Source: Obrimoposthia wandeli (lineage: Eukaryota). Taken from it: a stretch of 64,000 nucleotides of DNA. The position numbers and the translations under genes are program-made. The stretch lies in assembly GCA_977020255.1 (NCBI GenBank), contig CDROCS010002459.1, positions 1 through 64,000 on the forward strand, in the 5' to 3' direction. This document shows, piece by piece, positions 24,481 to 60,575 of the stretch. Under the pieces are notes generated by a model that saw only the letters and a list, made by a program, of their open reading frames with translations, had not been told where the DNA came from and searched no databases. The first letter of the stretch is position 1; every line of letters starts with the position of its first letter.

Positions 24481-25196
24481 TTTATTTTTAACATCAAAAA
24501 TTAGTTCAATGAAATCTCAAATAATTTAAACTTTGTAGAAGTATACAAAGGTTATATGCAGTGTCGCCAATTTCAGCTTTAAGAAACAGCTTCGAGATCT
24601 AAAATACTTATTACATTGGATCAAGCAGAAAACAAAGCTGTTTGAAAGTCGCTTGAAGCTGAGAAAACAGACAAATGACATCATTAATTTACACATATGT
24701 TTTCTCCCTTTTGTTTTATTAATTTTGGGTTGAATCTTACATTGCGAACTTCTTATAATGCATACCAAAATTTGTGTTTTTCAGAGTACGTATTTTTGAT
24801 GTTCGACTGTACATGTATGAAATTACTTAAAATATACAATTAGTAGAGAAACGTGTGAATATGAATGCATAATTTTATTTGTTATTTAGGCAATAACTTT
24901 CCGATCTGTAAATCTTTCTTTGTAAGATATTTCTGAAATATTTGTATAAAACCCAACAAAAATTTTCTGAAAATCACTTCTCTCACTTTATACATTACTT
25001 AAATCATTTAAATTTTTGGAAATAAAAGCTAAATAAAATGAAAAAACTGCAGTTTCAATTACATTCCCCATCGAGTTTATCTTTACAAATTTCTTTATCA
25101 AGTCCACTATTTATGTAGAAGTAAAATTATATTTCTTTTCAATTTGATCAACTTAATAAACTTTGAGGCAATTAAGATGAAAACAGGATGAGATCA

Positions 25197-25703
25197 AGTA
25201 GGTGGATGTGTCCGGTCTAATCCACACTCCCCTTGTCCTTTAAAACCGTGCATGTGTGTGGAGTGAAATTTGTAGGTGTGTGGAGTGAAATTTCACCCAC
25301 ACACATGCACAGTTTTAAAGGACAAGAGGAGGGCTACCCCCCTAAACATTTTTCGGGCCTATCGGCGCGAAGAGCTCGGGACCGACATTGGTCACAGACT
25401 AGTCCTGCGATGTACGGATATCTCGCTCTCATATCGGTCACAGACTAGCCCTGCGATGTACAGATATCTCGCTCTCATATAGGTCACAGACTAGCTTGGC
25501 GATGTACGGATGTCTCGCTCTCACACCACACCACACCACACCACACCGCACCACACCACACCACACCACACCACACCACACCACACCACACCACACCACA
25601 CCGCACCAGCACACCACACCACACCAAAACCACCGAAACACTCCACCCTCCGCCAGCCCCTTAGGGGCGGGCTTCATTCTTGATCTACAGGTACGAAAAA
25701 CAC
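25197..25703 (+). repeat. Left TIR: palindrome 25232-25326, three 46-bp tandem units 25390-25523, (CACAC)n 25523-25625, GC hairpin 25656-25668
   Basis: Reverse complement of 46180-46741; unit starts at 25390, 25436 and 25482. Confidence 0.92.
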
Positions 25704-25772: not shown

Positions 25773-26178
25773 TTAAACATAAAACAACATATTGGCTTCA
25801 CTCAAAGTCCAGAGAGGCTGCATTTTCCCGTCTTCAGCAAAATATCCATTCAGACGTATTGAGATATTCCATAGTTCTTCATCTAGAATTGGTTAAATCA
25901 AATATCCTAGATCATCTTTAAAAATCCAGACTGGGATCAGTTTCAAGCTCGAAACAATTTCCTTCACACACATAATCAGGAATGTAAAATCCCAAAATAT
26001 TTTTCAGTTGATCAAAATCAGTTGTTGTTAAAATTTCGATGAGATATTTATTCTGCACTTTTGATATTTTCACAGGCTTCATAACTCGTATAATTTGATG
26101 CTTCTTTAATATATTACACAGTTTTCCTCTTTGAAATTCTTTCTGGATAATAAAATTTGCTACACATCTCTTATCCAT
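25773..26178 (-). pseudogene. Orphan family paralog A (~134 aa; one frameshift, one stop)
   Basis: MDKRC...KKHQII..MKPVKI...DFDQLK...NCFEL...FKDDLG...WNISIRLNGYF...PLWTLSEA; AATAAA overlaps the stop codon. Confidence 0.7.
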
Positions 26179-26312
26179 TCTAAAAATAAGGAAACTGATT
26201 AAAAACAATGTTTATAAAAAATATACATAAGATACAATAAGATACAAATAAAACTGATTATTAAATGAAAAGAAACATAGTAAAACCGATTACAATTTAT
26301 TACACACAAAAG

Positions 26313-26788
26313 TTAAAACATAGAAATATGAGCACGTTCAATTTTCCACATAGGCAACTTTGTTCCTATTTCATCATTCTTGTAACCATAAAGTCGAATT
26401 GTTACAGTCCATTGCTTCTTTTTCGGAAACGTATCAATATCAACATATCTTCCATAGTCATCTAGAAACGCTTCATCGGCTCCTCGGATATAAAATTCGT
26501 TCTTATTGAAAGTAAAATTTGGAACTGCCTTTTCTATTTTCTGTTTAAGATATTGAAAATCAGGTTTTGAATACCTGATAGATAGTAGCTGAACATTTTT
26601 CTTTCAATTGTCACAGGATTTACTAAAGCAATCAGCTGAGCCTTCTTCAAGAATCTGACTTTGTATTTGAAATATTGTTTCACTTCTTCATACATATCCT
26701 TATCCGATTCTTCAAACATTTCTTCGTCATCGCTTAATACCCGTTGGCTATCGTCCATCGTTGATAATTGTCTTTGATATGAATGCAT
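26313..26788 (-). pseudogene. Orphan family paralog B (~158 aa; one frameshift)
   Basis: YFKYKVRFLKKAQLI..NPVTIE...DFQYLK...NEFYIRG...WTVTIRLYGYK...PMWKIERA; the frameshift is restored by the homolog at 60321. Confidence 0.8.
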
Positions 26789-26818
26789 TTACTGTGATTT
26801 GTCCTCCAATGGCGCATT

Positions 26819-26859
26819 CTTTTATACTAATTTCTAACAAAAAACATGAATCTCATTGG
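26819..26859 (-). promoter_or_regulatory. CCAAT + TATAAAAG promoter of paralog B
   Basis: TATAAAAG at 26826-26819, CCAAT at 26859-26855, ATG at 26788. Confidence 0.6.
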
Positions 26860-27824
26860 TTAATATAACAAAAGTATTGAATTTGATTGGACTAAATATA
26901 TCATCCAATTATAATAGGTTTGCAAGATAATTACAAGAAACGTGCAATAAAAAAGCAGGTTCAGACATACATAAAGAAGATTTTACAGAATACAATTTTA
27001 GTCTAATGAAACTCGTAAATATAAATTATAAAGGTAGAACTGAAGATGATGTTTCGTACTTACCATTCAATGAATGGAAGCCGAGACAATATGTAGAAAA
27101 AGTTTGACAATTTCACAGTTGTTATTTTTCCTACAAGTTAGTTTTTTTTATTTTATTTTCATATTGAATTCTTTAGGAAATTGTCGTGTTATGGGATGCA
27201 AAATAACAATGCTTGGGTTCAATTTACCATTTGGAATTCAAATCACTGCAATACAATCAATCACGATTTCGGCTAATCTCGGGAAACAGATAAATCTTTT
27301 AAAACTGCAGAGAAAATGAAAGAAAATGCATGTTTGAACCAGAAATTTTTCCTGCCTCAGTTATTTGAAGTTTAAACCGCTATGTGTAAATATATTTTCC
27401 AGTGGTAAAGATATGATATTGGGATTGAAAAATTTGATTATCCAGACATTGTTGATTTGATTTTAGAAAATATATCTTATTACATCTTTGTTATCTTTTC
27501 TATAAACAAACCTGTTTAAACTTATTGTTTTGAATGAATGATACTATAAATAGAGACAATGAAGTGGATCGGCTTGCTTGATGAAATATTTTCTGAAAAA
27601 TTAGGTAAAGAAATTTTATCAGAATTAAAAATAATGATATAACAAGAGATAACATTGAAATATTGGTTAGATCACACGTTATTCGGAGAATTTAGAAATC
27701 GTACACAAATAAATAAAATTATAGCCAAATATTCATTAATTAATTTTTGTATTTCTTCTACAATAGCTCTAACATTGTACATTTCTAATTAGGAAACTTC
27801 TATGATAATATAAACAATATTAAA

Positions 27825-28445
27825 ATGAAAGAGTATATGCAATGGAGCTTAAATAATAATGCTGTATTTCAAATAGTTGGCCCTAGTGGAAGTGGAAAGA
27901 CACATTTCAAGTCTGTAACATGTAAAATGAATCTCTTTTCAAATCTAGTTTCAAAAAATATTTATTGGCATCATGGTGGAGGCGGAAAGTGGGTTAACCA
28001 AAACAGAAGTTTTTCAAGTTGAAGGGTATAAAATTTATTGAAGGATTTGATGCAAATTGGTGAAAGATTGAAAAAGAAGATGTAATAATAATTGATGATT
28101 TGTATGAGGATGCTAACAAGGAATCGGACTTTAATAATTTATTTTACAAAGATTGCAAGACATCGTGAAGTAACAGTTATATTTATCACTCAAAAATCTG
28201 TTTCACTCAAGGAGGTCACCATAGAACAAGAAATCTTAATGTACACATTTAGTTTTATTTAAAAATCCAAGAGATCAAACAGTTGTTGATTTTATGGCCA
28301 GACAGGCATTTCTCAAAATAAGAACTTTCTAGTTGATTCACTCCACGATGCTGCTAAACAAGCACATGGGTATATATTTATTGACTTAAGCTTTCCCAGA
28401 TGATTTACGTGTTTTAACAGACATATTTAATTCAAGGGAGTAACT
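27825..28445 (+). pseudogene. A32-like DNA packaging ATPase
   Basis: Walker A GPSGSGKT, Walker B IIIDD, ARH, IFITQ, FKNPRD; several frameshifts. Confidence 0.92.
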
Positions 28446-28654
28446 GTTTATAAAACAAATAGAGCATCAATTATAAAAAAATAAATCGCAATGCCTTACA
28501 AAGTTGATAGTAAAACGTAAAGTAAAATCTAAGAAATCAAAAAATAATCATTAAGAAAAAAGAAGTGAAAAAATTAATCAAATCTGTAGTTAAAATAAAA
28601 AACTTAAATGGCTTCGAATATAAACAATATTTAAATTGAACCTTTTTATTAAAA

Positions 28655-28990
28655 ATGAAGAAAATACAAAGAAGCATACCCTATTTTAAAGCTTTAGTCA
28701 AAGCCTCTTCTAATAAGAGAATGATTATTCTAAAGCATTTCCATCCTTTTGTTGTAGATGATTTATTGGAAGTTTTGTATAATATAGTTTTGGGTCGTGT
28801 AAAAGTTGGAAATTGGAAAAATATTTTAAAGAAATATAGAAAAACTCTTCTAGATATTGCTAATGTAAAAAGTAAAAAAAGGAAACGAAATATTATTCTT
28901 AAACAGAATGGTGGTTTCCATAGGGGCTGTTATTCCAGTTGTTGCTTCAATTATCAGTAGTATTATAGCTGCGACACGTTCATAAACAAT
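28655..28990 (+). pseudogene. Small basic conserved Polinton protein (PW-like)
   Basis: K/R-rich, LYNIVLGRV, C-terminal KQNGGF followed by a hydrophobic tail (frameshifted). Confidence 0.65.
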
Positions 28991-29072
28991 TATTTCTAAA
29001 ATCAGCTAAAGATATAAGTGCTAGCCCTTCTTTTACCTAAACTTAAATTTTCTTTCTATTCAAATTGTTGTA

Positions 29073-30106
29073 ATGGAGAAGATATGGTTCAATCCAAAAT
29101 CCTTTAATTGGCTACACAGGTGTTTCAAAATTAGCAAAAAGAACAAAACAAAAATTGCAAGAAAACGCAGAAATGGCTGAAATGCGACCCGCTTAGCCTA
29201 CAGTCTGAACAAGCCGATGAGAAGAAGGTTTCCAACTAGAGCTTACAAAACCAGCGGTCATAATAATTTATGGCAAATGGATTTGATGGAGATGATCCCA
29301 TATTCTTCCATTAATAAGTGGGATATCGATATATTTTAGCTATGTATTGATGTATTTACCAGGTTTGCTCTCGTGCAATTCCAGTTAAAGCAAAGTCTTC
29401 AATAGCTATGCTTGAAGCTATTAAAGAAATATTAAAGAGGACATTCCACAAAATGTGCAAACTGATTTAGGAAAAGAATTTTATAATAAGCAAGTTCAAT
29501 CATTATTTAAACAAAATAATATAAACTATTACTCTTGCTTTCACAATACAAAGCAGCAGTAGTAGAAAGATTTTCCTAATCGTACTCTAAGAGATCGAAT
29601 AAAAAAGTATTTCACAAAAGAAGGAAATAAAAAAATGATCCAAGTTTTACCTAAATAATACATGCATATATAATCACTTGAACATAGAGGTCTCAAGGAA
29701 TGAGACCTGTTGATGTTACTAATAAAAACTCTATAGACATTTGATGAACAGGAATAAAAAGAAAATATTAAAAAGCTAAATATAAAAACGAATATGTTGA
29801 ATTTCGAAAATTAGCTCTACTCCATTTATTAAAAAACTTTGATCAGAATTGGAGCTATGAAAATATTTTGTATAAGTAAATTGACTAAAAAGAGTAATCC
29901 AATAATGTATACTATTAAAGATGCTGACAATAATATCGTTCACGGTAAATTTTACGAGCAAGAACTACAAGTAACATCAAATAAACCTAGCGTTTTCCGT
30001 ATTCAAAAAAAATATTAAAAATCTATGGGTACAGGTAAACATAAACAATACTTTGTTAAATGGCATGGTTATTCAGACCCAACTTTGGATATCAGCATCT
30101 AATATA
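29073..30106 (+). pseudogene. int: Retroviral-type DDE integrase with C-terminal chromodomain
   Basis: LWQMDL, CIDVFTR, VQTDLGKEFYN, AAVVERF, KFYEQELQ, YFVKWHGYS. Confidence 0.95.
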
Positions 30107-31505: not shown

Positions 31506-32786
31506 TGAGTTGCGCCAAAACTGAATTATGTATTTGATAAACTGCTTCCACAAGTAGTTGTAGATAATGCTTCCTTTGAAGAAATATTCCTAGTTAACTC
31601 AGTTTCAGGAACCACTTTAACCGATTTAGAATTTAATATTAATGGCTCCAATAGCGAGTATTTAGATTTGAAATTTATACTGCTTTATGTTCAAATAAAA
31701 GCGCTAAAATTGATGGTATCAATTTAAATGAAAAATGCCGATAACACCCGTAAATTATCTGGCTTAATTCTTTATTTAATGATGCCATTGTTACCTTATC
31801 AATGTCAAAATTGAAGGTGGAAATTCTTCCTATGCTCATAAAGCTTTGATTGAAAGTCTTTTGAATTATAGTACTGATACTCCAAATACTAATTTGGCAA
31901 CCATTGGTTATGATAAAACTGGATGCAACTCGCAATGAATGGATTGCAGGTTCTAAAGCTTACGAAATGTGTGGGTCTTTGAGATTGAATTTCTTTGAAC
32001 AACCGAAATATTATTTAATTCCTGGTGTTAATGTACATCTTCTTTTGAAACGTAATAAATGGAATTTTTCTTTGGTGATAAGCACGGACATTCTAAAAAC
32101 CTAGACTTGATATTTTGGATGCAAAATTGTATAGTGAAGAGTTAAAACCGAGCAATCAGTTTTAATGGCACATAATATAGTAATGGAAAAAACAATGCTT
32201 GTTATCCTATTAGAGAAACTAAACTTATATCTTATTCTTTAGGTACGGGTACACAAGCTTTTAATAAGGATCAAATTTTTTGGTGATGTAAGATTACCGA
32301 AATTCATTTTAATTTCTTTTTCAAAAACTGCAAAGTTTCTGGGACATTATACGACAGATGCAACTCAATTTGACAATCTTAATGTTGGTTCAGTGACACT
32401 TTCAAGAAATACTGATTATCGTGAAACATATAAAACAGATTTCGAAGGTAACGCTTATGCTTTGGCTTATACCCAATCTATTATTTGGAATTTGGGTCAA
32501 CTAGATAAAATATAAACAATGGTATTTCTTTCACTGACTTTCAAAACAGCTGCCCGTTCTTCAAATTTGTTTTGGCACCAGACTTTGATATAAACCAATG
32601 CCAACTACCAAACAATGGAAATTTACGACTAGAAATTAAGTTCAATGCAGCTTTGTAACAAATCCTACTACGGTGCTTATTTACGGAGTATTTGATTCAG
32701 AAATACAAATCAATAAAAACAGAACTGTCATATTATGGAATGGAGTAAGACATATTTTAAATTTATATTTATTAATTTTTATTTAG
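31505..32786 (+). pseudogene. Major capsid protein (double jelly-roll, PY)
   Basis: LEFNINGSNSEYLDL, QPKY.IPGVNV, LPKFILI, GNLRLEIKF, VLIYGVFDSEIQINKNR. Confidence 0.88.
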
Positions 32787-33130
32787 TTCAAAACAAGTAA
32801 AAAGAATCAGCAGAGAATGTCCTGGTTGATAAATTCAATGGAGTTTATCCTATTGATATGATTCCATTTTTTTCAATCTGGAGGTTACATTATCAATACT
32901 CATACTTCGAATTTATCAGGAGAACATTGGATAGCTATTTTTGTTAGAGAGTGGACAATACATGTATTCGATCCACTTGCAATGTATTATCCACACAAAC
33001 TTGTTTCAACTATTCAAAAAGGACGAAGAAGAGTATTTTACAACAAGATACAATATCAGGATCCTGCGACGAGAAACTGTGGACATTTATGTATTTTATG
33101 GTTATCGTTGCAAAACGATATGTGTTATAA
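32740..33130 (+). pseudogene. pro: Adenain-like cysteine protease, copy 1 (probable intron 32745-32786)
   Basis: GVYPIDMIP, GEHW, FDP, YQ, CGH catalytic motifs. Confidence 0.9.
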
Positions 33131-33394
33131 AAAAAAAAATTTTAAATGTTTTATTTTGAATTATTTTTTAAATCTCTAAAAAATATAAGGGTAAAATAAT
33201 AAAAGACATAAGACACTTATTTTTAATACATTTATTAATCACAACATCACACTGAGATATGTCAGCAAAGATAAGGCATAATAAATAGGGTCCATCCTAA
33301 AAAGGGATGGAAATAACAAATAAGTTAGAGTCTAAGTGCCATAAGGATCTAAACTTTTAAAAAAACTAAACTAAAAATCAAAAATGAAAACCGT

Positions 33395-36061
33395 TTAAAT
33401 TCTGAAGTGTCCATAAGCCAGGCTAGCGTTCTTTTCTACCCAAAAGCGCTTGTCGTCATTACTACTTAAAGCGATTTTGCTGATTTATGGGAATACAGTT
33501 GATGGGCTCTTGAAATAAATCTAATTTGCTCAACTCTTTCAATACGCCCAGTATCATAAACATTTCGGTCGGCCTCATGTGTAAGATTGTTTCTTCCCAC
33601 ACCCTTTTCTCTCATTGAACATGTATTATTAGATGCATGTAAACTGTAGCATTTAGGGCGTAGGAAAATACAATCATCATACGAAACCTGTCCTCGCTTT
33701 GATCCTTAAATTTCCCGATAATGTCCTTTAAACTCATAGAGTGTAGAGGATGGTTAGCGGGATATTTATGGGTATCTAGTAAGTTGTCCCTAAACATTGC
33801 TGGTAATAATTGATTATTTAAACTAACATTCCTACATTCTAAAAAGAAATAGTCAGTGTCCCCAGCTGCGATTTTAATCTCACAATTAAATTCTTGTCGG
33901 TATTTCTCCAATTCTATGTATTGAAGCTCATACATTCTGAGTTTAGAAATGTCTAAAACCGTTTGACCTATATAACTCGGTCGATCGAGACAAATACTTT
34001 GTTTTCCTAATAACACTGCTACCAAGTCATCTGCAATTGTAAAACTACGCTTGAAGTTGTACTTGCTAGTATATGTTATTAGTTTACGCTCATCATTGCA
34101 AAACCGTAGACAAATACGTTTCTGCAAGTCCTCTACAGTTTTTCCAAAGAGACTATTACTTTTTAACTTGTAAAATCCCGATCGAATTTGCTAGTGGCCA
34201 AATTACGTTTTCTTGAATTCTTCTCAATATAGTCTTTAAACACAAAGTTTTGACTGAAGCTTATAGCACGATGAATCTGAGTAACTTTCGCTCCCAACTT
34301 TAAGTAGAATTGAAGAAGCCGCCAATGCATAACATAATTCAACTTGTCTTCATGGGTTAACAATAATTTCTTAACCTTTAAATTAGATGGGCATTGATGA
34401 ACAGGCGCTACTGGAAGATCATCTAATTTATCATGCACATTGGGAGGGACTTTTATGTCCACCTCAACCAAATAGCCAACGTCGGATGAAACTGTATCAA
34501 CAGTAGCCAAATCTGTCATCAACTTATTCAACTGATCCACATCATAAACCCACTTAAAGTTGGCATGAGGTAGAGGTTGAGTAAGCGCCCACCCATACAA
34601 ATTATTAATATCGATGTACAGAATCTCCGTGGATTGATTTTTGACAACATGATGTTTGTTGACAAAGTCATTCCACCGCGTATACCATAATCATACATTT
34701 GATACATCGCGGATCTTGCAGTAACTCGATATTAATTTTAAGAGTTTTTATTGCTGTTGCCCATGAAAGACCAGGTAAACTAAAGAAATGCATGGGATCT
34801 AGCCCATCTTCTGCTAAAGACTTTACACTAAAGGACTCAAAAACATTAGCTAAAAGATAAATGTCTAACTTCATATAATAAAGCATATATTCGAGAAGAT
34901 TTTGACAATTATTCACCCAAAATGTATGGGCCTCATTCTAGTCTTGAAGACTTACACTTTCAAATTCAGTTATGGGTGGGATTTCAGTTGTATTTTCTAA
35001 ATCTGCGAAAGTTTTCGCAAATTTATACGGAAAAAATCCCCTTATCGATAACCGAAGCTGGGAACACTGACTGTGTAATTGACCATGCATTTAAAGATGC
35101 CGTTACATTTTTTAAAGACCCGCTCAAAAACTGATGAGAATCTATGAATCTTAAACTGCAGAATTCAGTATATGCAGTTAAAGATAAATATTTATCTGAA
35201 GTTTGAGGTATAAATGAAATTTCCCAATAGCTTAATGTACCTAACGCGTATTTAAGTATATGATGTAAATCATATCCTTTGAGATTATGAAACACGATGG
35301 GAATGCGTGGTTTTTTAGGGAGACGACGGCCAAGGTTACAGAGGTTGCACGCCGCTCTCAAGTATCGCCCCATAACATGATCGTGATCTCTGACTAACTT
35401 AGACTGGGTTCCACACAAATAACATAATCTACAAAAATTAAAATTAACCCAGCCTATGCCTGTCATGATCATTGTTTGATGAACATTGAGATCATACCAC
35501 GGTTTGACAATTGTTGTTCCTAATTCTTTTAATTTTAACATAACATCTAAAATACAATTTGAACCGGAAAATTTATGATACTGTGTAATATTGGGGCCTA
35601 AAAATAGTAGTCCTGCCGAAGCCGGTAGGTGAATACTCTCATACTGGTCGTGCAATACTAAATTGACTCAAAATCTGCATACACCCTGAATTCCACGGGT
35701 ATGCATTTTGCCCAATCCCTGAATTTTAAATCCTTATCCTTAGTCATGCTGTATAGCGTATTTTCATCAGGATTCAGTGAACATAATGTGAGATGTTTGC
35801 TGTAAGAGAGCTCGGATCGGAACCCATGCAAACATCTATGACACCACTTACACCTTATCCTAACCGGTAAGGCTCCATTATCTAAATTTAGAAGACGATC
35901 TAAATTGGGAATTGCAGCATAATGGAATTTTTTATTATGTTCGAGCAAAATTAAGTTGACCTGAGTCCCCTCATTTTTACTCCTATAAATTACATCTACA
36001 AAAGGATTTTTAAAAATTTCTTCATCTGTTACATTAACTGGGATATCAGTATTAAATTTGA
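33395..36061 (-). pseudogene. pPolB: pPolB, 5'-truncated duplicate
   Basis: YADFE, FHNLKGYD, polymerase motifs A/B/C, C-terminal LAYGHF. Confidence 0.92.
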
Positions 36062-36250
36062 TTATTTATTTATTTATTTATTTATTTATCTATTTATTTA
36101 TTTATATATTTATCAAACATTTATTAATGTGAACGCAATCAATTTCTCAAAGGCCCCATAGGGGCCTCTTCTACTTTACGTAGGTCCGGGTCTCAATATG
36201 CTGCTGGTCCTCGGTAGCAGTAACAGTAGCTGCTTGGGGTCTCGGTTTCG

Positions 36251-36700
36251 TCATTGAACTTTGAGTAGGTCCGCGTACTTTTTCAGTACTATTACGTCAT
36301 CGCAGGGTACAGTTTTGGGCCCCTCGGCAGTCTCGATTGTAGCGGGGCCACCTTTTCGGCCATTACCCGTAACCGACCGCAGGTCGGTTTTCGGGTACGA
36401 TTTCTCCTCCTGTCCATGTCGAGATTTCGAACTCTGACCACCACTATTCAAATCTCCCAACAAATCTGTTCGATTGTTGATAAAAGGTCTCTTTTCGGCA
36501 TACGAATCTGCTGCTTCCTCTAGACTAATGTTGTTCTTTGCTATTACAAATTTGTCGATAATACCAGACAGTATCTTTGCGCACTCCTCGTTGACATCAT
36601 AGTTTCGCAGTAACCCAAAAATATCGTCTTGGGCCCCCTGCAGGAGGTTATAATTACTCCCTTTGTTTACCTGCGCTTCATTTTTTCTCTTCCTGACCAT
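36251..36700 (-). CDS. Uninterrupted 149-aa ORF of unknown function inside the retro insert
   Basis: Open frame in otherwise decayed surroundings; no recognisable domain. Confidence 0.4.
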   Translation of the reverse strand: MVRKRKNEAQVNKGSNYNLLQGAQDDIFGLLRNYDVNEECAKILSGIIDKFVIAKNNISLEEAADSYAEKRPFINNRTDLLGDLNSGGQSSKSRHGQEEKSYPKTDLRSVTGNGRKGGPATIETAEGPKTVPCDDVIVLKKYADLLKVQ

Positions 36701-36799
36701 GTCGAAGTTTTCAGATTTTATTATTTTTATTCAGATATTTATAAACAATTTTTTTTTTCTTATTAATAAGGGGCTCATTTTCGGCACACGAATCTGCTG

Positions 36800-37050
36800 T
36801 TGTTTGTTGGTTGTTGGTTGGTGTTTGGTGTTTTTTTTGTGGTTGGTGGTTGTTGGGTGGTGGTTGGTGGTTGTTGGTTGTTGGTTGTTGGTTGTTGGTT
36901 GTTGATTGTTGGTTGTTGGTTGTTGGTTGTTGGTTGTTGATTGTTGGTTGTTGGTTGTTGGTTGTTGGTTGTTGGTTGTTGGTTGTTGGTTGTTGGTTGT
37001 TGGTTGTTGTTGTTTGTTGTTGTTGTTTTTATTTTTTTTTGTTTTTTTTT
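36800..37050. repeat. (TTGTTGG)n 7-mer array plus T-rich tract, i.e. an A-rich/CCAACAA tail on the minus strand
   Basis: Direct reading; about 20 clean units at ~36869-37007. Confidence 0.95.
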
Positions 37051-37711
37051 TATTTTACGTAGTTCCAGGCCTCAATCTTCTCCAGCTCCTCGGCTGACAA
37101 CTTATCCAGGATCCCAGTTGTATGACTCGAGAATTTAGCCCACGAGGCCGCTGTATGTTCGATGGTTTTCAGGGTTAGTCGGATCTTGATATCCTTGATT
37201 TCCTTTGCTTTAAAACCAGCATTTGCAAAGATCCGGTTATTGATTTCAGGCCAGAAGCCGAGGGTCCCGATCCTTAGCGCGTAGAGTTGCACGAGTTTTT
37301 CTGGGTGGCGGGTCTTTAGCATTTCAACGAGCTCCGCGTATTTGGACATAGTTTCGGTGAGCCTCAGATCAAATGACATGTCAGAGTCAAACGGGATCTT
37401 GATCTCTATCAGCATCACCTTATAGTCAGTCTCGATCGTTATGTCTGGTCGTGGTCTGCAGCTGTTTCCGTTATCGTCTACACATAAGTGGGTCAGCTCT
37501 TGAGTTACCTGTCCTGGATATTTTAGTTCCATGACCCTTGCAGTTTCCCGGCAGATCATGTCGTGTCTTTGAATTCGTAGTTTTGCTATGAGCTTACAAC
37601 CAACGATTGCATGGCTCATCGACTCTCGCTCCTGGCATCCCTTCCTGCATGGGGCGATCATATCAGTCCTGGGGCCTCGTACCTTCATGCGCCCGCACCT
37701 TTGTCCTCGTC
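37050..37711 (-). CDS. CCHC zinc knuckle + restriction-like endonuclease C-terminus (NeSL/Utopia/R2-like)
   Basis: CRKGC-x7-H-x4-C, RHD, RPD, IEIKIPFD, SKY, IGTLGFW. Confidence 0.9.
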
Positions 37712-40700
37712 TAACAAATCCTACTACGGTGCTTATTTACGGAGTATTTGATTCAGAAATACAAATCAATAAAAACAGAACTGTCATATTATGGAATGGA
37801 GTAAGACATATTTTAAATTTATATTTATTAATTTTTATTTAGTTCAAAACAAGTAAAAGAATCAGCAGAGAATGTCCTGGTTGATAAATTCAATGGAGTT
37901 TATCCTATTGATATGATTCCATTTTTTCAATCTGGAGGTTACATTATCAATACTCATACTTCGAATTTATCAGGAGAACATTGGATAGCTATTTATGTTA
38001 GAGAGTGGACAATACATGTATTCGATCCACTTGCAATGTATTATCCACACAAACTTGTTTCAACTATTCAAAAAGGACGAAGAAGAGTATTTTACAACAA
38101 GATACAATATCAGGATCCTGCGACGAGAAACTGTGGACATTTATGTATTTTATGGTTATCGTTGCAAAACGATAAGTGTGTTATAAAAATAAAAATTTTA
38201 AATGTTTTATTTTGAATTATTTTTTAAATCTCTAAAAATATAAGGGTAAAATAATAAAAGACATAAGACAATTATTTTTAATACATTTATTAATCACAAC
38301 ATCACAATGAGATATGTCAGCAAAGATAAGGCATAATAAATAAGGTCCATCCTAAAAGGTATTGAAATAACAAATAAGTTAGAGTCTAAGTGCCATAAGG
38401 ATCTAAACTTTTAAAAAACTAAACTAAAAAATCAAAAAAATGAAAACCGTTTAAATTCTGAAGTGTCCATAAGCCAGGCTAAGTTTTTTCTACCCAAAAG
38501 CGCTTGTCGTCATTACTACTTAAAGCGATTTTGGTTGATTTATGGGAATACAGTTGATGGGCTCTTTTGAAATAAATCTAGTTTGCTCAACTCTTTCAAT
38601 ACACCCAGTATCATAAACTTTCCGGTAGGCTCATGTGTAAGATTGTTTCTTCCCACACCCTTTGCTCTCATTGAACATGTATTATTAGATGCATGTAAAC
38701 TGTAGCATTTAGGGCGTAGGAAAATACAATCATCATACGAAACCTGTCCTCGCTTTGATCCTTAAATTTCCCGATAATGTCCTTTAAACTCATAGAGTGT
38801 AGAGGATGGTTAGCGGGATATTTATGGGTATCTAGTAAGTTGTCCCTAAACATTGCTGGTAATAATTGATTATTTAAACTAACATTCCTACATTCTAAAA
38901 AAGAAATAGTCAGTGTCCCCAGCTGCGATTTTAATCTCACAATTAAATTCTTGTCGGTATTTCTCCAATTCTATGTATTGAAGCTCATACATTCTGAGTT
39001 TAGAAATGTCTAAAACCGTTTGACCTATATAACTCGGTCGATCGAGACAAATACTTTGTTTTCCTAATAACACTGCTACCAAGTCATCTGCAATTGTAAA
39101 ACTACGCTTGAAGTTGTACTTGCTAGTATATGTTATTAGTTTACGCTCATCATTGCAAAACCGTAGACAAATACGTTTCTGCAAGTCCTCTACAGTTTTT
39201 CCAAAGAGACTATTACTTTTTAACTTGTAAAAATCTCGATCGAATTTGCTAGTGGCCAAATTACGTTTTCTTGAATTCTTCTCAATATAGTCTTTAAACA
39301 CAAAGTTTTGACTGAAGCTTATAGCACGATGAATTCGAGTAACTTTCGCTCCCAACTTTAAGTAGAATTGAAGAAGCCGCCAATGCATAACATAATTCAA
39401 CTTGTCTTCATGGGTTAACAATAATTTCTTAACCTTTGAATTAGGTGGGCATTGATGAACAGGCGCTACTGGAAGATCATCTAATTTATCATGCACATTG
39501 GGAGGGACTTTTATGTCCACCTCAACCAAATAGCCAACGTCGGATGAAACTGTATCAACAGTAGCCAAATCTGTCATCAACTTATTCAACTGATCCACAT
39601 CATAAACCCACTTAAAGTTGGCATGAGGTAGAGGTTGAGTAAGCGCCCACCATAAAATTATTAATATCGATGTACAGAATCTCCGTGGATTGATTTTTGA
39701 CAACATGATGTTTGTTGACAAAAGTCATTCCACCGCGTATACCATAATCATACATTTGATACATCGCGGGATCTTGCAGTAACTCGATATTAATTTTAAG
39801 AGTTTTTATTGCTGTTGCCCATGAAAGACCAGGTAAACTAAAGAAATGCATGGGATCTAGCCCATCTTCTGCTAAAGACTTTACACGAAAGGACTCAAAA
39901 ACATTAGCTAAAAGATAAATGTCTAACTTCATATAATAAAGCATATATTCGAGAAGATTTTGACAATTATTCACCCAAAATGTACGGGCCTCATTCTAGT
40001 CTTGAAGACTTACACTTTCAAATTCAGTTATGGGTGGGATTTCAGTTGTATTTTCTAAATCTGCGAAAGTTTTCGCAAATTTATACGGAAAAAATCCCCT
40101 TATCGTTAACCGAAGCTGGGAACACTGACTGTGTAATTGGCTATGAATTTAAAGATGCAGTTAAATTTTTTAAAGACCGCTCAAAAACTGCAGAGAATCT
40201 ATGAATCTTAAACTGCAGAATTCAGTATATGCAGTTAAAGATAAATATTTCTCTGAAGTTTGAGGTATACATGAAATTTCCCAAGAGCTTAATGTACCCA
40301 ACGCGTATTTAAGTATATGATGCAAATCATATCCTTTGAGGTTATGAAACACGATGGGAATGCGTGGTTTTTTAGGGAGACGACGGCCAAGGTTAAAAAG
40401 GTTGCACGCCGCTACCAAGTATCGCCCCGTAACATGATCGTGATCTCTGACTAACTTAGACTGGGTTCCACACAAATAACATAATCTAAAAGAATTAAAA
40501 TTAACCCAGCCTATGCCTGTCATGATCATTGTTTGATGAACATTGAGATCATACCACGGTTTGACAATTGTTGTTCCTAATTCCTCTAATTTTAACATAA
40601 AATCTAAAATACAATTTGGACCGGAAAATTTATGATACTGGGTAATATTGGGGCCTAAGAATAGTAGTCCTGCCGAAGCCGGTAGGTGAATACTCTCATA

Positions 40701-41114
40701 CTGGTCGTGCAATGCTAAAATTGACTCAAAATCTGCATACACCCTGAATTCCACGGGTATGCATTTTGCCCAATCCCTGAATTTTAAATCCTTATCCTTA
40801 GGCATGCTATATAGCGTATTGTCATCAGGATTCAGTGAACATAATGTCAGATGTTTGCTGTAAGAGAGCTCGGATCGGAACCCATGCAAACATCTATGAC
40901 ACCACTTACACCTTATCCTAACCGGTAAGGCTCCATTATCTAAATTTAGAAGACGATCTAAATTGAGAATTGCAGCATAATGGAATTTTATTATGTTCGA
41001 GCAAAATTAAGTTGACCTGAGTCCCTCATTTTACTCCTATAAATTACATCTACAAAAGGATTTTTAAAATTTCTTCATCTGTTACATTAACTGGGATATC
41101 AGTATTAAATTTGA
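37712..41114. repeat. Copy 2 of the 3.4-kb direct duplication
   Basis: Matches 32656-36061. Confidence 0.95.
37796..38215 (+). pseudogene. pro: Adenain-like cysteine protease, copy 2 (probable intron 37801-37842)
   Basis: SGEHWIAIY, FDP, YQ, NCGHLC in one open frame 37913-38215. Confidence 0.9.
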
Positions 41115-42927
41115 ATACATTAATACTCAAGTTATTAAGATGTTCAAATCTTGATATCGCAGTTAATTTAACAGGAAAATCTATTCCATGATACTGCAAT
41201 TCATTTAAAAAATGGGTATATTTACTGACACGCTCTCTATGCTCAGTAATTACACCCCTTTTGAGGATGGCCAACACGCTATACAGAAAGCAAAGGTTAT
41301 CACTGTTTTGTACGTTAACAATGGAACGTGAAAGTTGAAGAGATCTAGGTGAAGGAATGTATGAACTCCCCGAAAGATATATCATGTCAGTGATTTTTGT
41401 TAGAACAAAGCTAACATCGTGAATTCTAACTAGAGTCCACCCACTACTTAACTCGCTATAATTAGCAATTTTTTCATCCAGGTTTCTTCCAATTTCAGTT
41501 ACAAAATTATCATAAAAACAGTTGCTTTATGTGAAATTACCCAAGTTTTAGTGTCCTCATTGACATTTTTAAACTGCACTGTTGCGCAAAATTGAACCTT
41601 AGCCTGTCCTAATTTAGTCACCTCTGATTTTAAAAGATTTTCAATATTTGAATTTACACCTACGTTTAATAAAATTGCATTTCCTAATGGCACCTTAACT
41701 ATAACATATTTATTATTTAGGTGATACTCTATAGTAGCACCGTTTTCTCTACGTTTTTGGTGGGATCTTATTAAGAAATTGGCCTCGCCTCTTTCTTCCG
41801 TTTGTCGCTGACAAACCTTCCCCTAATTGAACGGGAAGACAACTATTTATATTAATAGTTGAGACAATCGCAGCTGATGTGGAAGCTGCTGCTATTGTTG
41901 ATGCTGCCGATGTTGAGGCAACTGTAGCTGATGTTGAAGGGACCGCTGACCTTGCCGATGAAGAAGCGGCTGTTGTAGAGGTTAGTGCTGCTGAAATAAA
42001 TATATTAAAATATAAATATATTTTTAAAAAGTATTAACTCTAAGGCGTGCTAACATCGATGTAGGCACTCGCGATGGTGAAGGCATATCTGTTGTAGCAG
42101 ATGACGATTGTAGAACGGTATTTCCTGAATAAAAAAATAAAATAAAATATATATATTAAAAAATAAAACATATAATTTAAAAATAATAATAAAAAATACC
42201 TAATGAAGGCAATCCAAGTTGAGCTGGAATGAAGTCCTCTTCATTGACGAAATCCATCCAGCTGTCATCCGACATCTCGACGAAATCGGATTCCTCGATG
42301 GTCTCCAACCATGAGTTATCGCTCCACTGCTCTATCTCGAAATCTGACTGGGATATGTCATTCATCCACTCATTGTTAGACATTTGAGTGGATTGGTCAG
42401 AATCAGGAGCCGGGGAGACCAATCGCATGACCGTAAAAGGGTTGATCGACTGCAACTGGAATTGGAGCTGGAGCGGCCTGCGAATCGTGCACCAATTGCA
42501 TGATATCCCTCTTCTTGTTGTTGGCCGTGAAACACGATTTTGATTTTTTGATTTTTTTGGATTCTATTTTCCAGTTTTATATATATTTTTCCATGTAATA
42601 AAAAATAAGATCAGGTTTCCAGGTGCGAATCGCGCACCAATTGCATGATATCCCTCTTCTTGTTGTTGGCCGTGAAACACGATAGGTGAGCTCGATGTTC
42701 ACTGAAGAAGTCTCGAAACTCCTTCTCCTCCATTGTTCTGCAGAAGGGGCAGACAAAGAAGTGAAGCCCGCGAGACTTTGTCCGGTAGTATGCAGACATT
42801 GTCTCCATGCAGGTCTCTCCTCCATGTGGAACCGAAACACCACAATACGCAGGGAATAGGTTACAAGTAATCTGAAATAATAAATATTAATAAGGAAATA
42901 ATAAAAATAAATTCTTACCATAGGCAT
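38451..42927 (-). pseudogene. pPolB: Full-length spliced pPolB with long N-terminal extension (~1380 aa reconstructed)
   Basis: GSSYIP..NSDNLCF, YADFE, VRDHDH.TG, FHNLKGYD, GIRGG, LYIDINN, FYKLKSNSLFGK, GDTD; introns 42872-42918, 42125-42199, 41991-42038. Fusion of the 5' exons to polB is inferred. Confidence 0.85.
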
Positions 42928-46179: not shown

Positions 46180-46741
46180 TGTTTTTTTGTGCCTGTAGAT
46201 CAAGAATGAAGCCCGCCCGAAGGGGCGGGTGGTGTATGTTAGGGTATGACACGGGTCGTTTACATTTGTAGTTGTGAGAAGTAAAGTGATACTGTAGCGC
46301 ATGTTTTGTAGTTATTTTCGTGAGAATAGAGCCCGCCCGAAATGGCGGGCGGAGGGTGGAGTGNNNNNNNNNNNNNNNNNNNNNNNNNNNNNNNNNNNNN
46401 NNNNNNNNNNNNNNNNNNNNNNNNNNNNNNNNNNNNNNNNNNNNNNNNNNNNNNNNNNNNNNNNNNNNNNNNNNNNNNNNNNNNNNNNNNNNNNNNNNNN
46501 NNNNNNNNNNNNNNNGTACATCGCAGGGCTAGTCTGTGACCAATGTCGGTCCTGAGCCCTTCGCACCGAAAGGCACGAAAACATTTAGGGAGGGTACCCC
46601 CCTTGTCCTTTAAAACCGGGCATGTGTGTGGAGTGAAATTTCACTCCACACACCTACACGAAATTTCACTCCACACACATGCACGGTTTTAAAGGACAAG
46701 GGGGAGGGGGGTGTGGATTAGACCGGACACATCCACCTACT
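46180..46741 (-). repeat. Right TIR (contains an assembly gap)
   Basis: Reverse complement of the left TIR; the N gap replaces the microsatellite and 46-bp repeat part. Confidence 0.92.
46364..46515. other. Assembly gap (152 N)
   Basis: Direct reading. Confidence 1.
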
Positions 46742-49419
46742 AGCTCATGTTTTATCTTGATCTCTAATTGTACATCCGAAATACTTTACATACGCTTCTG
46801 AAACATTGGATGTTGTTAGAGTCCATTAAGATTAAAAATCGACAATTTGCCACAAATGTAATAAAATTGTTTAGGATTACTATGTAAATATGTTTGATTG
46901 GTATTAGAAATATTTGATTATATATTATAATTTAATACACATACAAATATTTTATTTAAAATCATGTAACTTAGAATCTATACACATCTGAAGAATTACA
47001 GTGAATAACATAGTGAACTGGAAGACACTATCAAAGGTGATGAAATTGCAATTTGATGGCTGATTACTGTTGAAGTTTAAAACAAGCTGTTGTCCAACAA
47101 AACTATACCAGACAATAAAAAAGGAAATATTTTAGTTATTGTTAGTTTGTATGCATTTTGCGAGAAAATCATGTGTGATACAGATTTAACAGTGTTCTTC
47201 TCGAATGAGCAAAACATATTTGTCTAGAATTCAGACATTTTTAAAAACTGATTTTTTTGGATTCTATTTTCCAGTTTTATATATATTTTCCCATGTAATA
47301 AAAAATAAGATCAGGTTTCCAGGTGCTTTAAAAGAACTTTCAAAACACATCATGGGGGAAGTGTTCAGCAACTGAATTCTGATGGGTTAAAACAATGCCT
47401 ATTAATTCAGGAGGACAAATCAGGTTAACAGATAAAATAAGTTTGTTTCATAGAACAAGGATTCGAGAAAAAATCAACTGTTTTTTTGTAATAAAACGTT
47501 TTCCAAGCTTATCTATATCAACATATGCCGTATTCGATTGTTTTTAATTTTTGTGACCATATTCAAGCTATTTGAAGAGGTTTAACTTTTGTTACTGAAT
47601 ATTTCCATCAAAGGGGTAAATTTCTAAAACCTCTTTATTAGAAAGTTTATTTTAGCGTATTTAAATTTTTTATGACAATTTGATGAAAATTGGCTGTCTA
47701 TTATAATGGACAATGATATATTTTTACATTTTCACACAACAAAATTCTGGACAATCAATAAAAATAACACCATGCGACATTTGCGTCGGAAAATATTTTT
47801 GAAAAAACCTCCAAACATTATACGCTATTTACATTTAATTAACGAAAGAAACATATTGAAATAATCATCAATAAGAGATTTTTAATGTGATTTTATGTTT
47901 TGGCTTATCTTTTTTTCTTGTGACATTAACAACATCAACTTTGTGTAAAGATCTAAACCCATCATGTGTCGTACAGTCGAAACCATTTGAAGACTTCTGG
48001 TCAATGCTAAAATCTGGTGAGAAAAAAACTCTACCTCAGTTAGAAAATATAATAAACATTGCCTAGTAAAGTTAAATGTAACAGTGGCTGTCAGGTGATG
48101 AACAACATCAAGTCAGATTTAGAAAACCTAAACAAAGTTAAGTTAGTTCTTCATAGTATCAACACTTGCTTATACATTTTGCGTTTTTTCACAGTATTGG
48201 TATATAAAATATTATTTTTAAATATATTTCTAACTGTTTAAATCGAGTAAAATTAGAGTATATATTCTGATTTGAAGCTATTCAAGTTATTCTTTTCTGA
48301 TTATGTAGAGTATAATAAGGTGAAAATGAGTAATCATATAGTTCAGACTTCGGTTCTGAGTTTAGGAGATCGATTTATTGTTTTAACATACTTTTGTTAA
48401 AAAATTATAGATAATAATTTTAATTTTAGTACATATTTTTAAACACTTAAGTTTAAAAAATAAAATTTTAAATATCCCGTCTTTAATGGAATTAAATTAA
48501 ACACAAAGAGTATATGTATTTATTAAAATACAAAGTTATATGCATAATTGATTTCATAATTATCTATCCAATTAAAACAAAAATACGTATTTCTACGAAA
48601 TGGACGACTGTATTTAAGTTCACTATCCGCAAAATGTTCCAGTTATAGTCTTACTTCCATCGCACTGCTGGCTCCTTCACGACTACGACATGACAGTATA
48701 ACAAAGTATGGAGTAATCTGGGTATACCCCGTTTGTTGTGTTGTGAAGCCACTGAGTCGTAACTTTAGGACTTTTAGACTCTTAAACTTATACCTCAAAG
48801 ACTTGTAAACCTGTTTTGTGAAATATTGGACTTTTATGTTGAGTGAAATAATTCATTGTAACCAAAATGTTATGCTGAAATCGAAAATGTTAAGTACATT
48901 TCCATTTGAACATATAAAAATGAAATTTAAAATTTTGACTAAATTCAACCTAACTTTAAATTTTACACTGATTTCAAGTAAATTAACCAAATTTTAATTT
49001 GACTTCATTAAACAAACTCAATTTAATTTTTTGCTAAATTTATTTTAAAAAATCAAAAAGATCAACATTTGCACTGATTTAAAATATGTGTATAACATTT
49101 CCATTTGAGTTCATTGAAACATATTTAATTTCCAATTTTGCACTAAGATCATCGTAAGCTCAAATTATGTACTGAATTCAAATATGTTAATCACATTTCG
49201 ATTACATAAAATAAAAATGTATTGAAGACTTGACTTGGCAGGTATGACACCCTGTATTACCGAGTCATCATTTCGTCCTAAGTTTACATATTGATCTATA
49301 TTTAGAGTCATTATAATAATAAAAAAAGATAAAACGACATATAAATGAAAATATTTTTTTTCATATATTTATTATAGTTCATGCGTTAAATTAGTTTTTA
49401 AAGTCCAGAGCAAATTGAC

Positions 49420-49990
49420 GTGACTATCAATCGGTTTTCTACCGTTTAAACCCTCTGTGGGGAATTATAACAGAAGCTTTCGTAATATCTCAACCGATTT
49501 CTTATTACTTTTAACTTTAAAGTGTTTCTTGAGTTAATCTCTTAATGCGCGGTTAAATCTTTCAACTAATGTAGTTTTGAATTGAGAAAAACTGAGTAAT
49601 GACTATAACTTAGTTTTTCAAAGAAACCTTTTACAGTTTTATTAAAAAAATCCTTATCTAAATATGTTTGAGTATTTTTATGGATAAAATCAATACTTTT
49701 TCTTAGAGCTTCTTTTATATTTTTTGTTAACTTTGATTTTACTGGCATTACACGACCAAATCTACTAAACACATCAATACATTATAAAATATATTTTTAA
49801 CCTTCATTAATACTACTATAAGGTATCATTTCCATTAAATCGTCTTGGCATAAATCATTTGGATTAATAGCCTTGTATGCTCGAGTTGGTAACCTTTCTT
49901 TATATTGGCTTGTTGATTTCTATGTCATTTTTGTGTTTTCTTTTAACTTGGTTTTACGTTTGATGATAGTACGACAAGGCCACTGTCCCC
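49420..49990 (-). pseudogene. Isolated Polinton integrase relic
   Basis: RLPTRAYKA..DLMEMIPYSSIN, FSRFGRVMPVKSK, VERFNRAL, GLNGRKPID; colinear with 29073-29760. Confidence 0.85.
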
Positions 49991-57000: not shown

Positions 57001-58702
57001 AATCAAATACAAAATGTAAATAATATGACTTAGTTTTATCTTTGTACCGTAGATTTATATATTTATGGCCATTTACATTTCATTTCGGCACATTTAATAT
57101 GACCTTGAAATTATAACCTCATATTAAATGCGTATAAGAGAAATCTCATTGCAAATAAATAGAAAAACCGAGCTGAAGAAGCAAAGATTAGATAAATAAT
57201 GATTGATGGGCTTTTACTTTTGATAAGACAATCAAGTTAAATATCAAATATTGTGGTGAAAATAGTTAGACTAATTTTCGTTTTTCTACTTATATTTAAA
57301 AAATAGGATTTACTTATAAATTCCTGTGATTTCATTAAAGTCGTTCATTTCTTTCCAGAAAAAGAACCTACATTTAAAGGCTTTGGGGTAATACTGAAGT
57401 TTGTTGTATGTCTTAACATACTAAATTATCCGTAAGGATTATTTTACCACTCTCTATCGTTATTAATCCGAAAAAATTTAAGCTTTAAAATGAAACTGAT
57501 AATGAAACTGATAAAGAAAAGTCCAGATTCATCTGCATTGAAAACATGGCCTTGAATACACCTCCCGGTGTGTGCTTGGAGTAAAATTTAGTGCATGTGT
57601 GTATAATCTAAAAAATAATTTTCTTTATTGTTTGTAAAATATCAATTTAAGTTCAATAGTATTTATTACAGAAATATATAGGTCAAATATATATTTTAAG
57701 ATAAATAACAATACACAAAACAAAAATTATATTCAATACATCTACTAAATCAAGACAGATATTTAAAATAAAACCCCACATTAGCTTCATTTGAAGAATT
57801 TGTATTTTATCATATGTGTAAATAAAGTATACATTAGTCTGAATTGAATTATTTCATATTTTTCCTTTTAAATGTATACCAATCAAACAACCAAGGACAT
57901 CTCTAAAAACAAGGCTGGGATCAGCTTCTATCTTAAAAGAATTTCCTTCATGTAATTTCCTTTTGTAATAATTTACATACGAAATGTGTCTTTCCACTTC
58001 CACTGGGATCAACTATATGAAATATGGCATTATTATTCAGCTCTATTACGTCTACTCTTTCATTTTAGTATTGTTTTTTATCATCATAGAAGTTTCCTTA
58101 TAAAATGAATAATTCCAGAGCTACTGTTGATGAATTACAAAAGCTTATTAAGGAATATATAGCTGCAATTTGATTTAATTGCTTTTCTTATATAATAACA
58201 TGTGATCTAATGAGATCTTGCAAACCTTTTAAAAATGGATGAATGAAAAATAATATATTTCTTTCAATCAAAATTAATTTGGTCCAATAAAATTCAATGA
58301 TTTAATTATATTAACCAATTAGATTTATGTATTTGTTTCAAATTAGTATGACAGAATGTCATTTAAACGAATCATTATAAATGCATTCATATTAAATACA
58401 ATTACACTCGCTGTAAATTAGTAAGTTGATTCTAGAATGTATCTAGATAATTGTACTGAGTTGATAGGTAGCAATTGTCAATCTATTGGTTCAAATTACA
58501 ATTTCAAACTTTTTAATAAATAAAAAAACATATAGTAAGTGGAATTGAAGGTATTCCAAATTTGCACGCATACACACACATGAAATAATCTCACAACCCA
58601 ATTAAATTAAGGGTAAGGGCACCAAATTGTAGAAACTTAATAGATGGATATAACCCTTAATAAGTGGATTTTCATTATAAACTTTTAAACTTATTTTATA
58701 AA

Positions 58703-60129: not shown

Positions 60130-60575
60130 ATGGTAGAAAGCTAACAAATAAAGAGGGATGATGAAAATTAAGAAATGTTTGAAAATTCGGATAAGATTAT
60201 GTATTAAGAAGTGACACAATATTTTAAATACATAGTTAGGTTTTTAAGACGTCTCAACCAATTGATTTAGTAAATCCTGTGACAATTGAGGGACTAAAGT
60301 TTAGCTATTATTTATCAAATATTCAAAAAACAGATTTTCAATATCTTAAACAGAAAGTTGAAAAACAATTTTATATTCGATCAGAACGATTTTTATATCT
60401 GAGGAGCTAATTCAATATTCTTATATGAATATAGAAGAGTAGTTGGTGTATATGCGTTTACAAAAAAAGAAGCAATGGACTGTAACAATTCGTCTTTATG
60501 GTTACAAGAAGAATGAAATTGGATCAAAGCTACCTATGTGGAAAATTGAACATGATCATATCCATATTTTGACTA
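60130..60575 (+). pseudogene. Degenerate copy of orphan paralog B
   Basis: KKKQWTVTIRLYGYKKNEIGSKLPMWKIE is nearly identical to 26313-26420. Confidence 0.85.

Follow-up and report, generated by a model that had tools for sequence, protein, structure and literature searches.

Insertions of a non-LTR retrotransposon at one site in the Polinton polymerase gene of Obrimoposthia wandeli are recurrently flanked by kilobase-scale direct duplications

We analysed a 64,000-nucleotide stretch of the Obrimoposthia wandeli genome (GCA_977020255.1, contig CDROCS010002459.1, positions 1-64,000, forward strand), referred to here as the window, in which a retrotransposon with a restriction-like endonuclease (RLE) lies inside the protein-primed DNA polymerase B (pPolB) gene of a Polinton. 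All coordinates are window positions unless another locus is named. The initial annotation described a 5'-truncated RLE retrotransposon placed between two 3.4-kb direct repeats, X (32656-36061) and X' (37712-41114), in the geometry of a target-site duplication (TSD). Self-BLAST of the window bore out this layout. Positions 32656-36064 matched 37712-41117 over 3422 columns at 97.5% identity, with 56 mismatches and 25 gap openings (E=0), and the tail and 5' junctions were both located. The parts of the locus are as follows, with ORF standing for open reading frame and UTR for untranslated region.

32656..36061, X, the downstream arm (tail side), with a broken pPolB on the - strand and an adenain-like protease remnant on the + strand
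33200..33620, first patch of X/X' differences, 13/415 sites differ
35040..35800, second patch of X/X' differences, 32/759 sites differ
36062..36105, - strand, (TAAA)n tail, joined to the target site of the family
36199..36719, - strand, 522 nt within the 3' UTR that repeat the 5' terminus of the element itself (ORF1 start), at 99.8% identity with that terminus in the full-length copy L063
36790..37030, - strand, (CAACCAA)n-type microsatellite of the 3' UTR, variable in length between copies
37050..37701, - strand, 3' part of ORF2 with a CCHC knuckle and a PD-(D/E)xK restriction-like endonuclease
37702..37711, - strand, 10-nt filler at the 5' junction, not found in 29 other copies
37712..41114, X', the upstream arm, which meets the truncated 5' end and runs on into upstream Polinton DNA

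The region from 32.6 to 41.2 kb was free of N, the sole N run of the window being 46364-46515. X ends at 36061 and meets the tail at 36062, while retrotransposon homology stops at 37701 and the filler bridges to X', which retains an empty target site near 41114. The 3' part of ORF2 was 100% identical over 652 nt to at least 37 other places, and over 653-654 nt to 2 more. Judged by this match and by identities to family copies that were mostly ~99% over the 3' part, the window insertion is recent. Together with the base that follows, nine filler bases match ORF2 at a point 1.9 kb further 5', a hint that the cDNA at this locus may once have been ~3.6 kb long, although so short a match has an estimated ~2-9% chance of arising at random.

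To place the two arms, X and X' were compared with 104 homologous segments from other loci, and state frequencies were taken among the segments covering each site. The arms had 25 states in common that each occurred in at most 10% of covering segments, 14 of them in none, and these were spread along the whole arm (32699-36055). X and X' thus descend from one damaged copy, and the duplication arose in situ after that Polinton copy was inactivated, as had been proposed. Two of the lesions on which this proposal was based were indeed common to both arms: the frameshift between KFKD and LRPK (an indel state at 33694 that is different in 49 of 54 other segments) and the altered motif C (a state at 33850 found in 0 of 55 other segments). 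The frameshift at the start of the protease, also thought to be shared, was not, as the indels at 32803 and 32873 are private to X and X' is open across 37832-38215. Private indels reported for each copy were present near 34172-34176 and at 38896.

The differences between the arms were unevenly distributed. The two patches make up 35% of the length and hold 45 of the 55 X/X' substitutions, and outside them the arms differ at 10 of 2226 sites (0.45%). The best 750 bp contained 31 differences, compared to at most 27 in 2000 shuffles. X carried the minor state at 47 of the 55 sites and X' at 8, and at 8 sites X was without a base that X' and most copies have. Because the differences are clumped, and mostly in X, the arm identity of 97.5% gives no date for the event, and the alignment of X to X' that had been suggested for dating was unusable for that purpose. 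The patches could stem from later gene conversion, from patchy consensus error in a near-identical repeat or from switching during repair. A single donor copy for the X patches was considered and rejected, the best other segment having only 13 of the 32 states.

The full-length element is ~6.1 kb and encodes ORF1 and an ORF2 with reverse transcriptase (RT), CCHC and RLE. In the full-length copy L063 a 759-codon, repeat-rich ORF1 overlaps a 984-codon ORF2 frame. ORF2 matched RVT_1 (E 1.6e-28), the reverse transcriptase of elements that lack long terminal repeats (non-LTR elements), and its nearest solved relatives were R2 proteins (E 1.2e-48), ahead of L1 ORF2p (1e-17). The C-terminal knuckle and endonuclease region aligned to its R2 counterpart at residues 934-1098 (E 1.6e-09), and no apurinic/apyrimidinic endonuclease (APE) family was found in Pfam for ORF1 or ORF2. 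The tail was (TAAA)n of 14-71 nt in 29 on-site copies, whose 5' ends differ. By exact 3' end the genome assembly holds at least 1366 copies (control 0). On these features the family is a young, high-copy RLE non-LTR family of the R2 group. Database relatives were at most 32-37% identical, and many of the top matches carried a Ulp1 protease (PF02902) or came from turtles, ants or a nematode; this hit list points tentatively to the NeSL clade. Insertion into U2 small nuclear RNA genes, as in Utopia, or into ribosomal DNA (rDNA) or tRNA genes, as in R5/LIN, R2 and R9, was not what we found, the target being Polinton pPolB with no Rfam match in 25-47 kb. The combination of APE and RLE that marks Dualen was likewise not found, the APE domain being absent from the searches.

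Targeting of Polintons, which the initial annotation had offered as a possibility, was established by 836 tail-to-target joins at one site in pPolB. Set against the 1366 exact 3' ends this is ~60%, an approximate figure as the left anchors differ. The 1.35 Gb assembly contains 7347 target half-sites. Among the first 20 listed copies 14 were at the site, 3 in the Polinton terminal inverted repeat (TIR), 1 elsewhere in a Polinton and 2 outside, so that 18/20 lay in the Polinton family; with two same-event-like pairs merged, 13/18 were on site. When loci were chosen by pPolB similarity, 26 of 29 matched the site motif and 2 of those 26 were occupied. Open frames run across the site in empty copies, which places the target in coding sequence, and the element lies in the sense of pPolB. 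The family is site-specific. Hitch-hiking with Polinton transposition was rejected: 3' ends differed by 1.2% and flanks by 3.6% with no correlation (rho -0.10, 352 pairs from 29 on-site copies), and 5' ends differ. Divergence of the flanks was threefold that of the inserts and did not vary with it, so the copies are independent insertions into pre-existing Polinton copies. Also rejected was 3' transduction of a pPolB piece, since most copies have upstream Polinton DNA as their upstream flank. Three copies (L144, L145 and L146) had tails joined within the Polinton TIR. In L146 the 5' end lies a short way upstream of the main target but the 3' end is in a TIR, which makes this copy either a rearrangement or a case of priming near a Polinton end. 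L112 is inserted at the homologous site of a Polinton only ~80% like the family in the window, and recognition therefore tolerates divergence.

Other copies were mapped for target and duplication length, as the initial annotation had advised. We examined 20 copies that were long and young, 16 of them on site and 4 off it, drawn from the 20 of 29 with the 3' end read, together with 20 unselected copies and 20 matches to the redundant segment, that is, the 3'-UTR copy of the 5' end. Both ends were available for 37 on-site copies, of which 34 were mappable. Left out of the 34 were J5, J9 and L160, with unmappable or complex upstream flanks, L113 and L117, with the 3' end unseen, and the off-site copies. 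The duplication proved to be a recurrent trait of the family, found at 12 further loci, and not the rare single event it might have been. The 34 copies comprised 12 duplications of at least 400 bp, 4 of 50-399 bp, 6 near-blunt insertions and 12 deletions, 5 of 26-399 bp and 7 larger. Each of the 12 long duplications (485-6359 bp) extends from the target up to the element's 5' end. Their lengths in bp were 6359 (J1), ~6200 (J2), 4234 (L118), 3032 (L158), 2780 (L111), 2006 (J10), 1985 (J7), 1909 (J11), 1669 (J6), 1529 (J15), 1016 (L152) and 485 (J3).

The two arms were 99.1-100% identical in 11 of the 12 duplications and 97.1% in J11, as compared to 92-98% between Polinton copies. Internal deletions or insertions were common to both arms in J7, J10, J15 and L158, and the J2 arm crosses the TIR and continues ~150 bp into the flanking repeat. 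J2, L111 and L118 are full-length, and their arms end at the common 5' start of the family; a later deletion would rarely hit this natural start. Where measurable, 5' junctions had an overlap of 0-2 bp or a filler of 4-10 nt. Shorter duplications included a 19-bp TSD at J13 and one of 98 bp at the off-site copy L157. The arms of J15 and L152 both end near 35008, and two independent deletions, J0 (L061) and J4 (L065), end less than 20 bp apart near window 43410. At C435:290911-307688 five tail-target junctions with the same tail were spaced by ~4.18 kb, probably a tandem array of element plus arm, and close junction pairs also occur at C357, C463, J6 and L120.

Duplication length rose with insert length (rho 0.92, n=15, with L106 left out because it copies L105; rho 0.85 if only the 12 long duplications are taken). 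Duplications of at least 400 bp were seen at 12 of 23 inserts longer than 1 kb and at 0 of 11 shorter ones (Fisher p 0.003). Deletions had no link to insert length (rho 0.19, n=14). The upstream arm of J11 is a mosaic, agreeing with its partner close to the target but with a different Polinton copy at greater distance, which fits what template switching would give.

From these data we propose the following sequence of events. By analogy with R2-type biology, the element would nick pPolB at one site in the copies of an abundant Polinton family, and target-primed reverse transcription (TPRT) would start at the nick from the (TAAA)n tail, with the 5' junction settled late. In a minority of events host DNA synthesis would extend the upstream target end across the DNA downstream of the nick, using the same molecule or its sister as template in a break-induced or strand-displacement mode. 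This extension would last roughly as long as reverse transcription, and the extended end would then be end-joined to the cDNA with an overlap of 0-2 bp or a filler of 4-10 nt, giving arm, element and arm. Resection of the upstream end would instead lead to a deletion. At 13 loci the arms arose in situ and coupled to the insertion, X/X' in the window being one such event, and as a general account we hold insertion-coupled in situ duplication by a Polinton-targeting element to be highly probable. Given such a duplication, we lean towards the host-synthesis step as its mechanism. The whole account of site-specific TPRT, host extension of the upstream end during reverse transcription and end joining is fairly likely as the best explanation. 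Resolution by repair or strand displacement, as suggested earlier, is the best inference.

A true long TSD would give identical in situ arms as well, if the element's own endonuclease made its second-strand nick kilobases downstream and both arms were filled in by RT or by strand displacement on the part of the host, with no prior extension of the upstream end. TSDs defined by nick stagger are the standard model in the part of PMC6895275 that treats them. Arms formed in situ (99.1-100% identical at 11 of the 12 other loci) would be compatible with this model, and the shared end point of J15 and L152 and the 19-bp TSD at J13 speak for it. The other end points all differ, however, ranging from 73 bp to 6.4 kb, and a nuclease of fixed geometry predicts neither the link to insert length, nor the mosaic arm of J11, nor an equal number of deletions, which makes a long TSD an unlikely origin. 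Two different Polinton copies, whether tandem, ectopic or allelic, could also have been joined during or after insertion by deletion or unequal exchange. TSD geometry with one end always at the target site would then be automatic, more than 7000 target copies exist, X and X' are only 97.5% alike and an allelic copy would have the older rare states of X; J11 (97.1%) and J9 (87%) show that an upstream arm can come from other copies. But 14 states shared by X and X' occurred in none of the other covering segments, the 0.45% difference outside the patches compares to 1.1-1.9% to the nearest other copy (in the two longer of these stretches), the 47:8 asymmetry is unlike allelic divergence and three duplications stop precisely where full-length elements have their natural 5' start. 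We consider such joining quite improbable. Merging of two alleles or loci by the assembler would account for the 25 mostly homopolymer indels between the arms and for the 8 sites where a base is missing only from X, and none of the 32 contig pieces seen, out of 11829, bridges the junction. The region is nevertheless without a gap, a merge would not make a unique filler exactly at the truncation, and the same geometry with different lengths recurs at 12 other loci. Depth over the filler bin was 15-43 in 4/4 runs (contigs, one sample, perhaps the assembled one), against tens of thousands for repeats. This depth is weak support and the recurrence is the stronger argument. We regard an artefact as very improbable. 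An RNA-templated arm, made if the RT jumped from its own RNA to a Polinton transcript and the cDNA annealed to the upstream end, is suggested by the sense orientation in pPolB and by the fillers and terminal redundancy, which hint at template jumping. The arms, though, span convergent genes, at J2 continue beyond the TIR into DNA of the flank, and resemble their own locus and not a typical copy; there is little chance that they were copied from RNA.

Several observations weigh against insertion-coupled duplication with host extension, or limit it. X and X' are 2.5% apart while the insert is ~99-100% like its family. At 47 of the 55 differing sites the minor state is in X, which is the old arm under the model, and rare states common to both arms alternate with these sites at 10-50 bp, a pattern left unexplained by one template switch. 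Duplications of at least 1 kb were present at only 2 of the 14 on-site copies in the unselected sample (95% confidence interval 2-43%). The window locus, with a 1.65 kb insert and a 3.4 kb duplication, is off the length trend, and adding it lowered rho to 0.80 overall and to 0.63 for the long duplications. This correlation was found post hoc in a mixed sample of which only 20 copies were unselected, the offsets are BLAST edges in an assembly with homopolymer indels, and the structure was read from the assembly and contigs.

The 3'-UTR copy of the 5' end, the redundant segment (36199-36719 in the window), is preceded by an AT-rich, TATA-like stretch. Seven sampled 5' ends (J2, L111, L114, L117, L118, L144 and L145) lay within ~10 nt of the start of this segment, L144 and L145 probably being one event, and in L142 3'-UTR sequence lies before the 5' repeat. 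L114 is a 620-nt copy starting at the redundant segment. We infer from this arrangement a promoter in the 3' UTR. A 159-aa frame at 36251-36730 was dismissed as a separate gene or element, being a copy of the ORF1 start. ORF1 of L063 had no convincing Pfam match; 167 of its codons are duplicated internally, and it also has a 24-residue tandem repeat, which is variable. The off-site copy L030 (C1118) has a ~360-nt internal tandem duplication across the ORF2 end and the microsatellite.

Tx1L of Xenopus has Tx1D as its target and makes a short TSD, and TART of Drosophila is a telomeric APE element. The present family is unlike both in carrying RLE, and Tx1L further belongs to the L1/Tx1 lineage, has an APE nuclease and does not target Polintons. 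In the passages of the cited papers that treat them, Tx1L is a non-LTR element that targets another transposable element (PMC8869645), transposons are known more generally to serve as targets of other elements (PMC4640811, PMC8869645), and TART has 5' and 3' direct repeats, for which it was proposed that the RT jumps from the 5' repeat to the 3' one and adds upstream sequence (PMC1636488). The 3'-UTR sequence before the 5' repeat of L142 resembles this template-jump idea. From the same kind of passages, the NeSL clade (NeSL, Utopia, R5/LIN and YURE) targets U2, spliced leader, 28S, tRNA and microsatellites (PMC4640811). It likewise combines RT, CCHC and RLE with target specificity, and the Ulp1 domains and the turtle, ant and nematode sources among the best hits of the present family are as for Utopia and NeSL, whereas the present family has a Polinton coding target, a best hit only 32% identical, two ORFs and terminal redundancy.

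The closest precedents for the duplications, again as given in parts of the papers cited, are three. Dualen-4b_cRei of Chlamydomonas reinhardtii has non-LTR insertions with TSD-like duplications, more than half over 50 bp and with a median of 900 bp; Dualen carries RLE and APE, and its authors suggest that two nucleases explain the long duplications (PMC9977147). The ORF2 of the present family has RT and RLE only and its target is fixed, and the passages on Dualen mention neither a fixed target nor a link to insert length. In human L1, tandem duplications of 1-10 kb were ascribed to break-induced replication (10.1101/2024.12.14.628481), the same mechanism as proposed here, but L1 is an APE element with dispersed targets and the cases are low-frequency events in cancer genomes and p53-null cells, in contrast to an inherited RLE family at one fixed site. 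R9 of bdelloid rotifers is a site-specific RLE element with a 126-bp TSD (cited in PMC9977147 and PMC6895275) whose target is rDNA, while outcomes in the present family range from ~5 kb deletions to 6.4 kb duplications.

The host of the window insertion was identified by its ends and by its genes. Its terminal features are listed below.

25191..25196, left 6-bp flank of the Polinton, 5/6 bases equal to the right flank, probable TSD
25197..25415, + strand, Polinton TIR, 86% inverted match to 46516-46761, AGTAG start
46516..46741, - strand, TIR at the other end

The TIRs are thus 86% alike and the 6-bp flanks agree at 5/6 positions. DNA_pol_B_2 was detected in X (E 6.7e-08 and 2.1e-06), and PF03175, for the protein-primed polymerase, was above the cut-off in 3 window frames and reached E 2.2e-25 in L090. 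Peptidase_C5, for the adenain-like protease, was weak and below the cut-off (E 0.011-0.019, with 0.011 for the remnant in X). A copy of the Polinton family added an rve integrase below the cut-off (E 5.5e-06) and an A32-like ATPase (Pox_A32) above it (E 9.1e-06). Frames of 335 and 355 aa in L082, considered for the double jelly-roll major capsid and the penton, had no match in Pfam, the only database used for them. The element that received the window insertion is a Polinton in a degraded state. Beside the ATPase the family also carries an ORF (L082:8952-9659, - strand; homologous window region ~27100-27800) in which a TATA-binding-protein domain was detected (PF00352, E 1.7e-11, above the cut-off). 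Inverted pieces at 49555-49914, 57826-58404 and 60170-61171 are 68-80% similar to parts of 25783-29573 and are remains of a second, diverged Polinton copy. Many Polinton copies end at two common points in pPolB (window ~34263 and ~35115), which are shared deletions or further insertion hot spots. A search of viral_contigs for relatives found none.

Kilobase TSD-like duplications alone have precedent in Dualen and L1; what appears to be new is the combination of an RLE-only element with a fixed Polinton target and an apparent length coupling. In the literature searched, which did not extend to subscription journals or Repbase, where an entry is possible, we found no non-LTR element that targets Polintons, no RLE-only case of kilobase duplication and no scaling of duplication with insert length. 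How the 5' end of non-LTR elements is joined is described as still open in a passage of PMC6895275, and the answer is relevant to gene insertion tools of the R2 type and to rearrangements driven by L1. Hundreds of insertions with one first-nick site make the spread of 5' outcomes readable in a single genome. Kilobase duplications by an RLE-only element argue that two nucleases, as suggested for Dualen, are not required, and with the Polinton polymerase gene RLE proteins gain another class of target and a new sequence that they recognise. More tentatively, and as a possibility we would not yet call likely, the element may be an RLE retrotransposon specialised as a parasite of the virus-like Polinton, with the kinetics of its 5' integration bound to DNA synthesis by the host; the length of a duplication would then record reverse-transcription time. 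On this view each long duplication would place a vacant target, together with an unbroken copy of the downstream gene block, on the upstream side of the insert, and the family would in this way regenerate its own target and seed tandem arrays.

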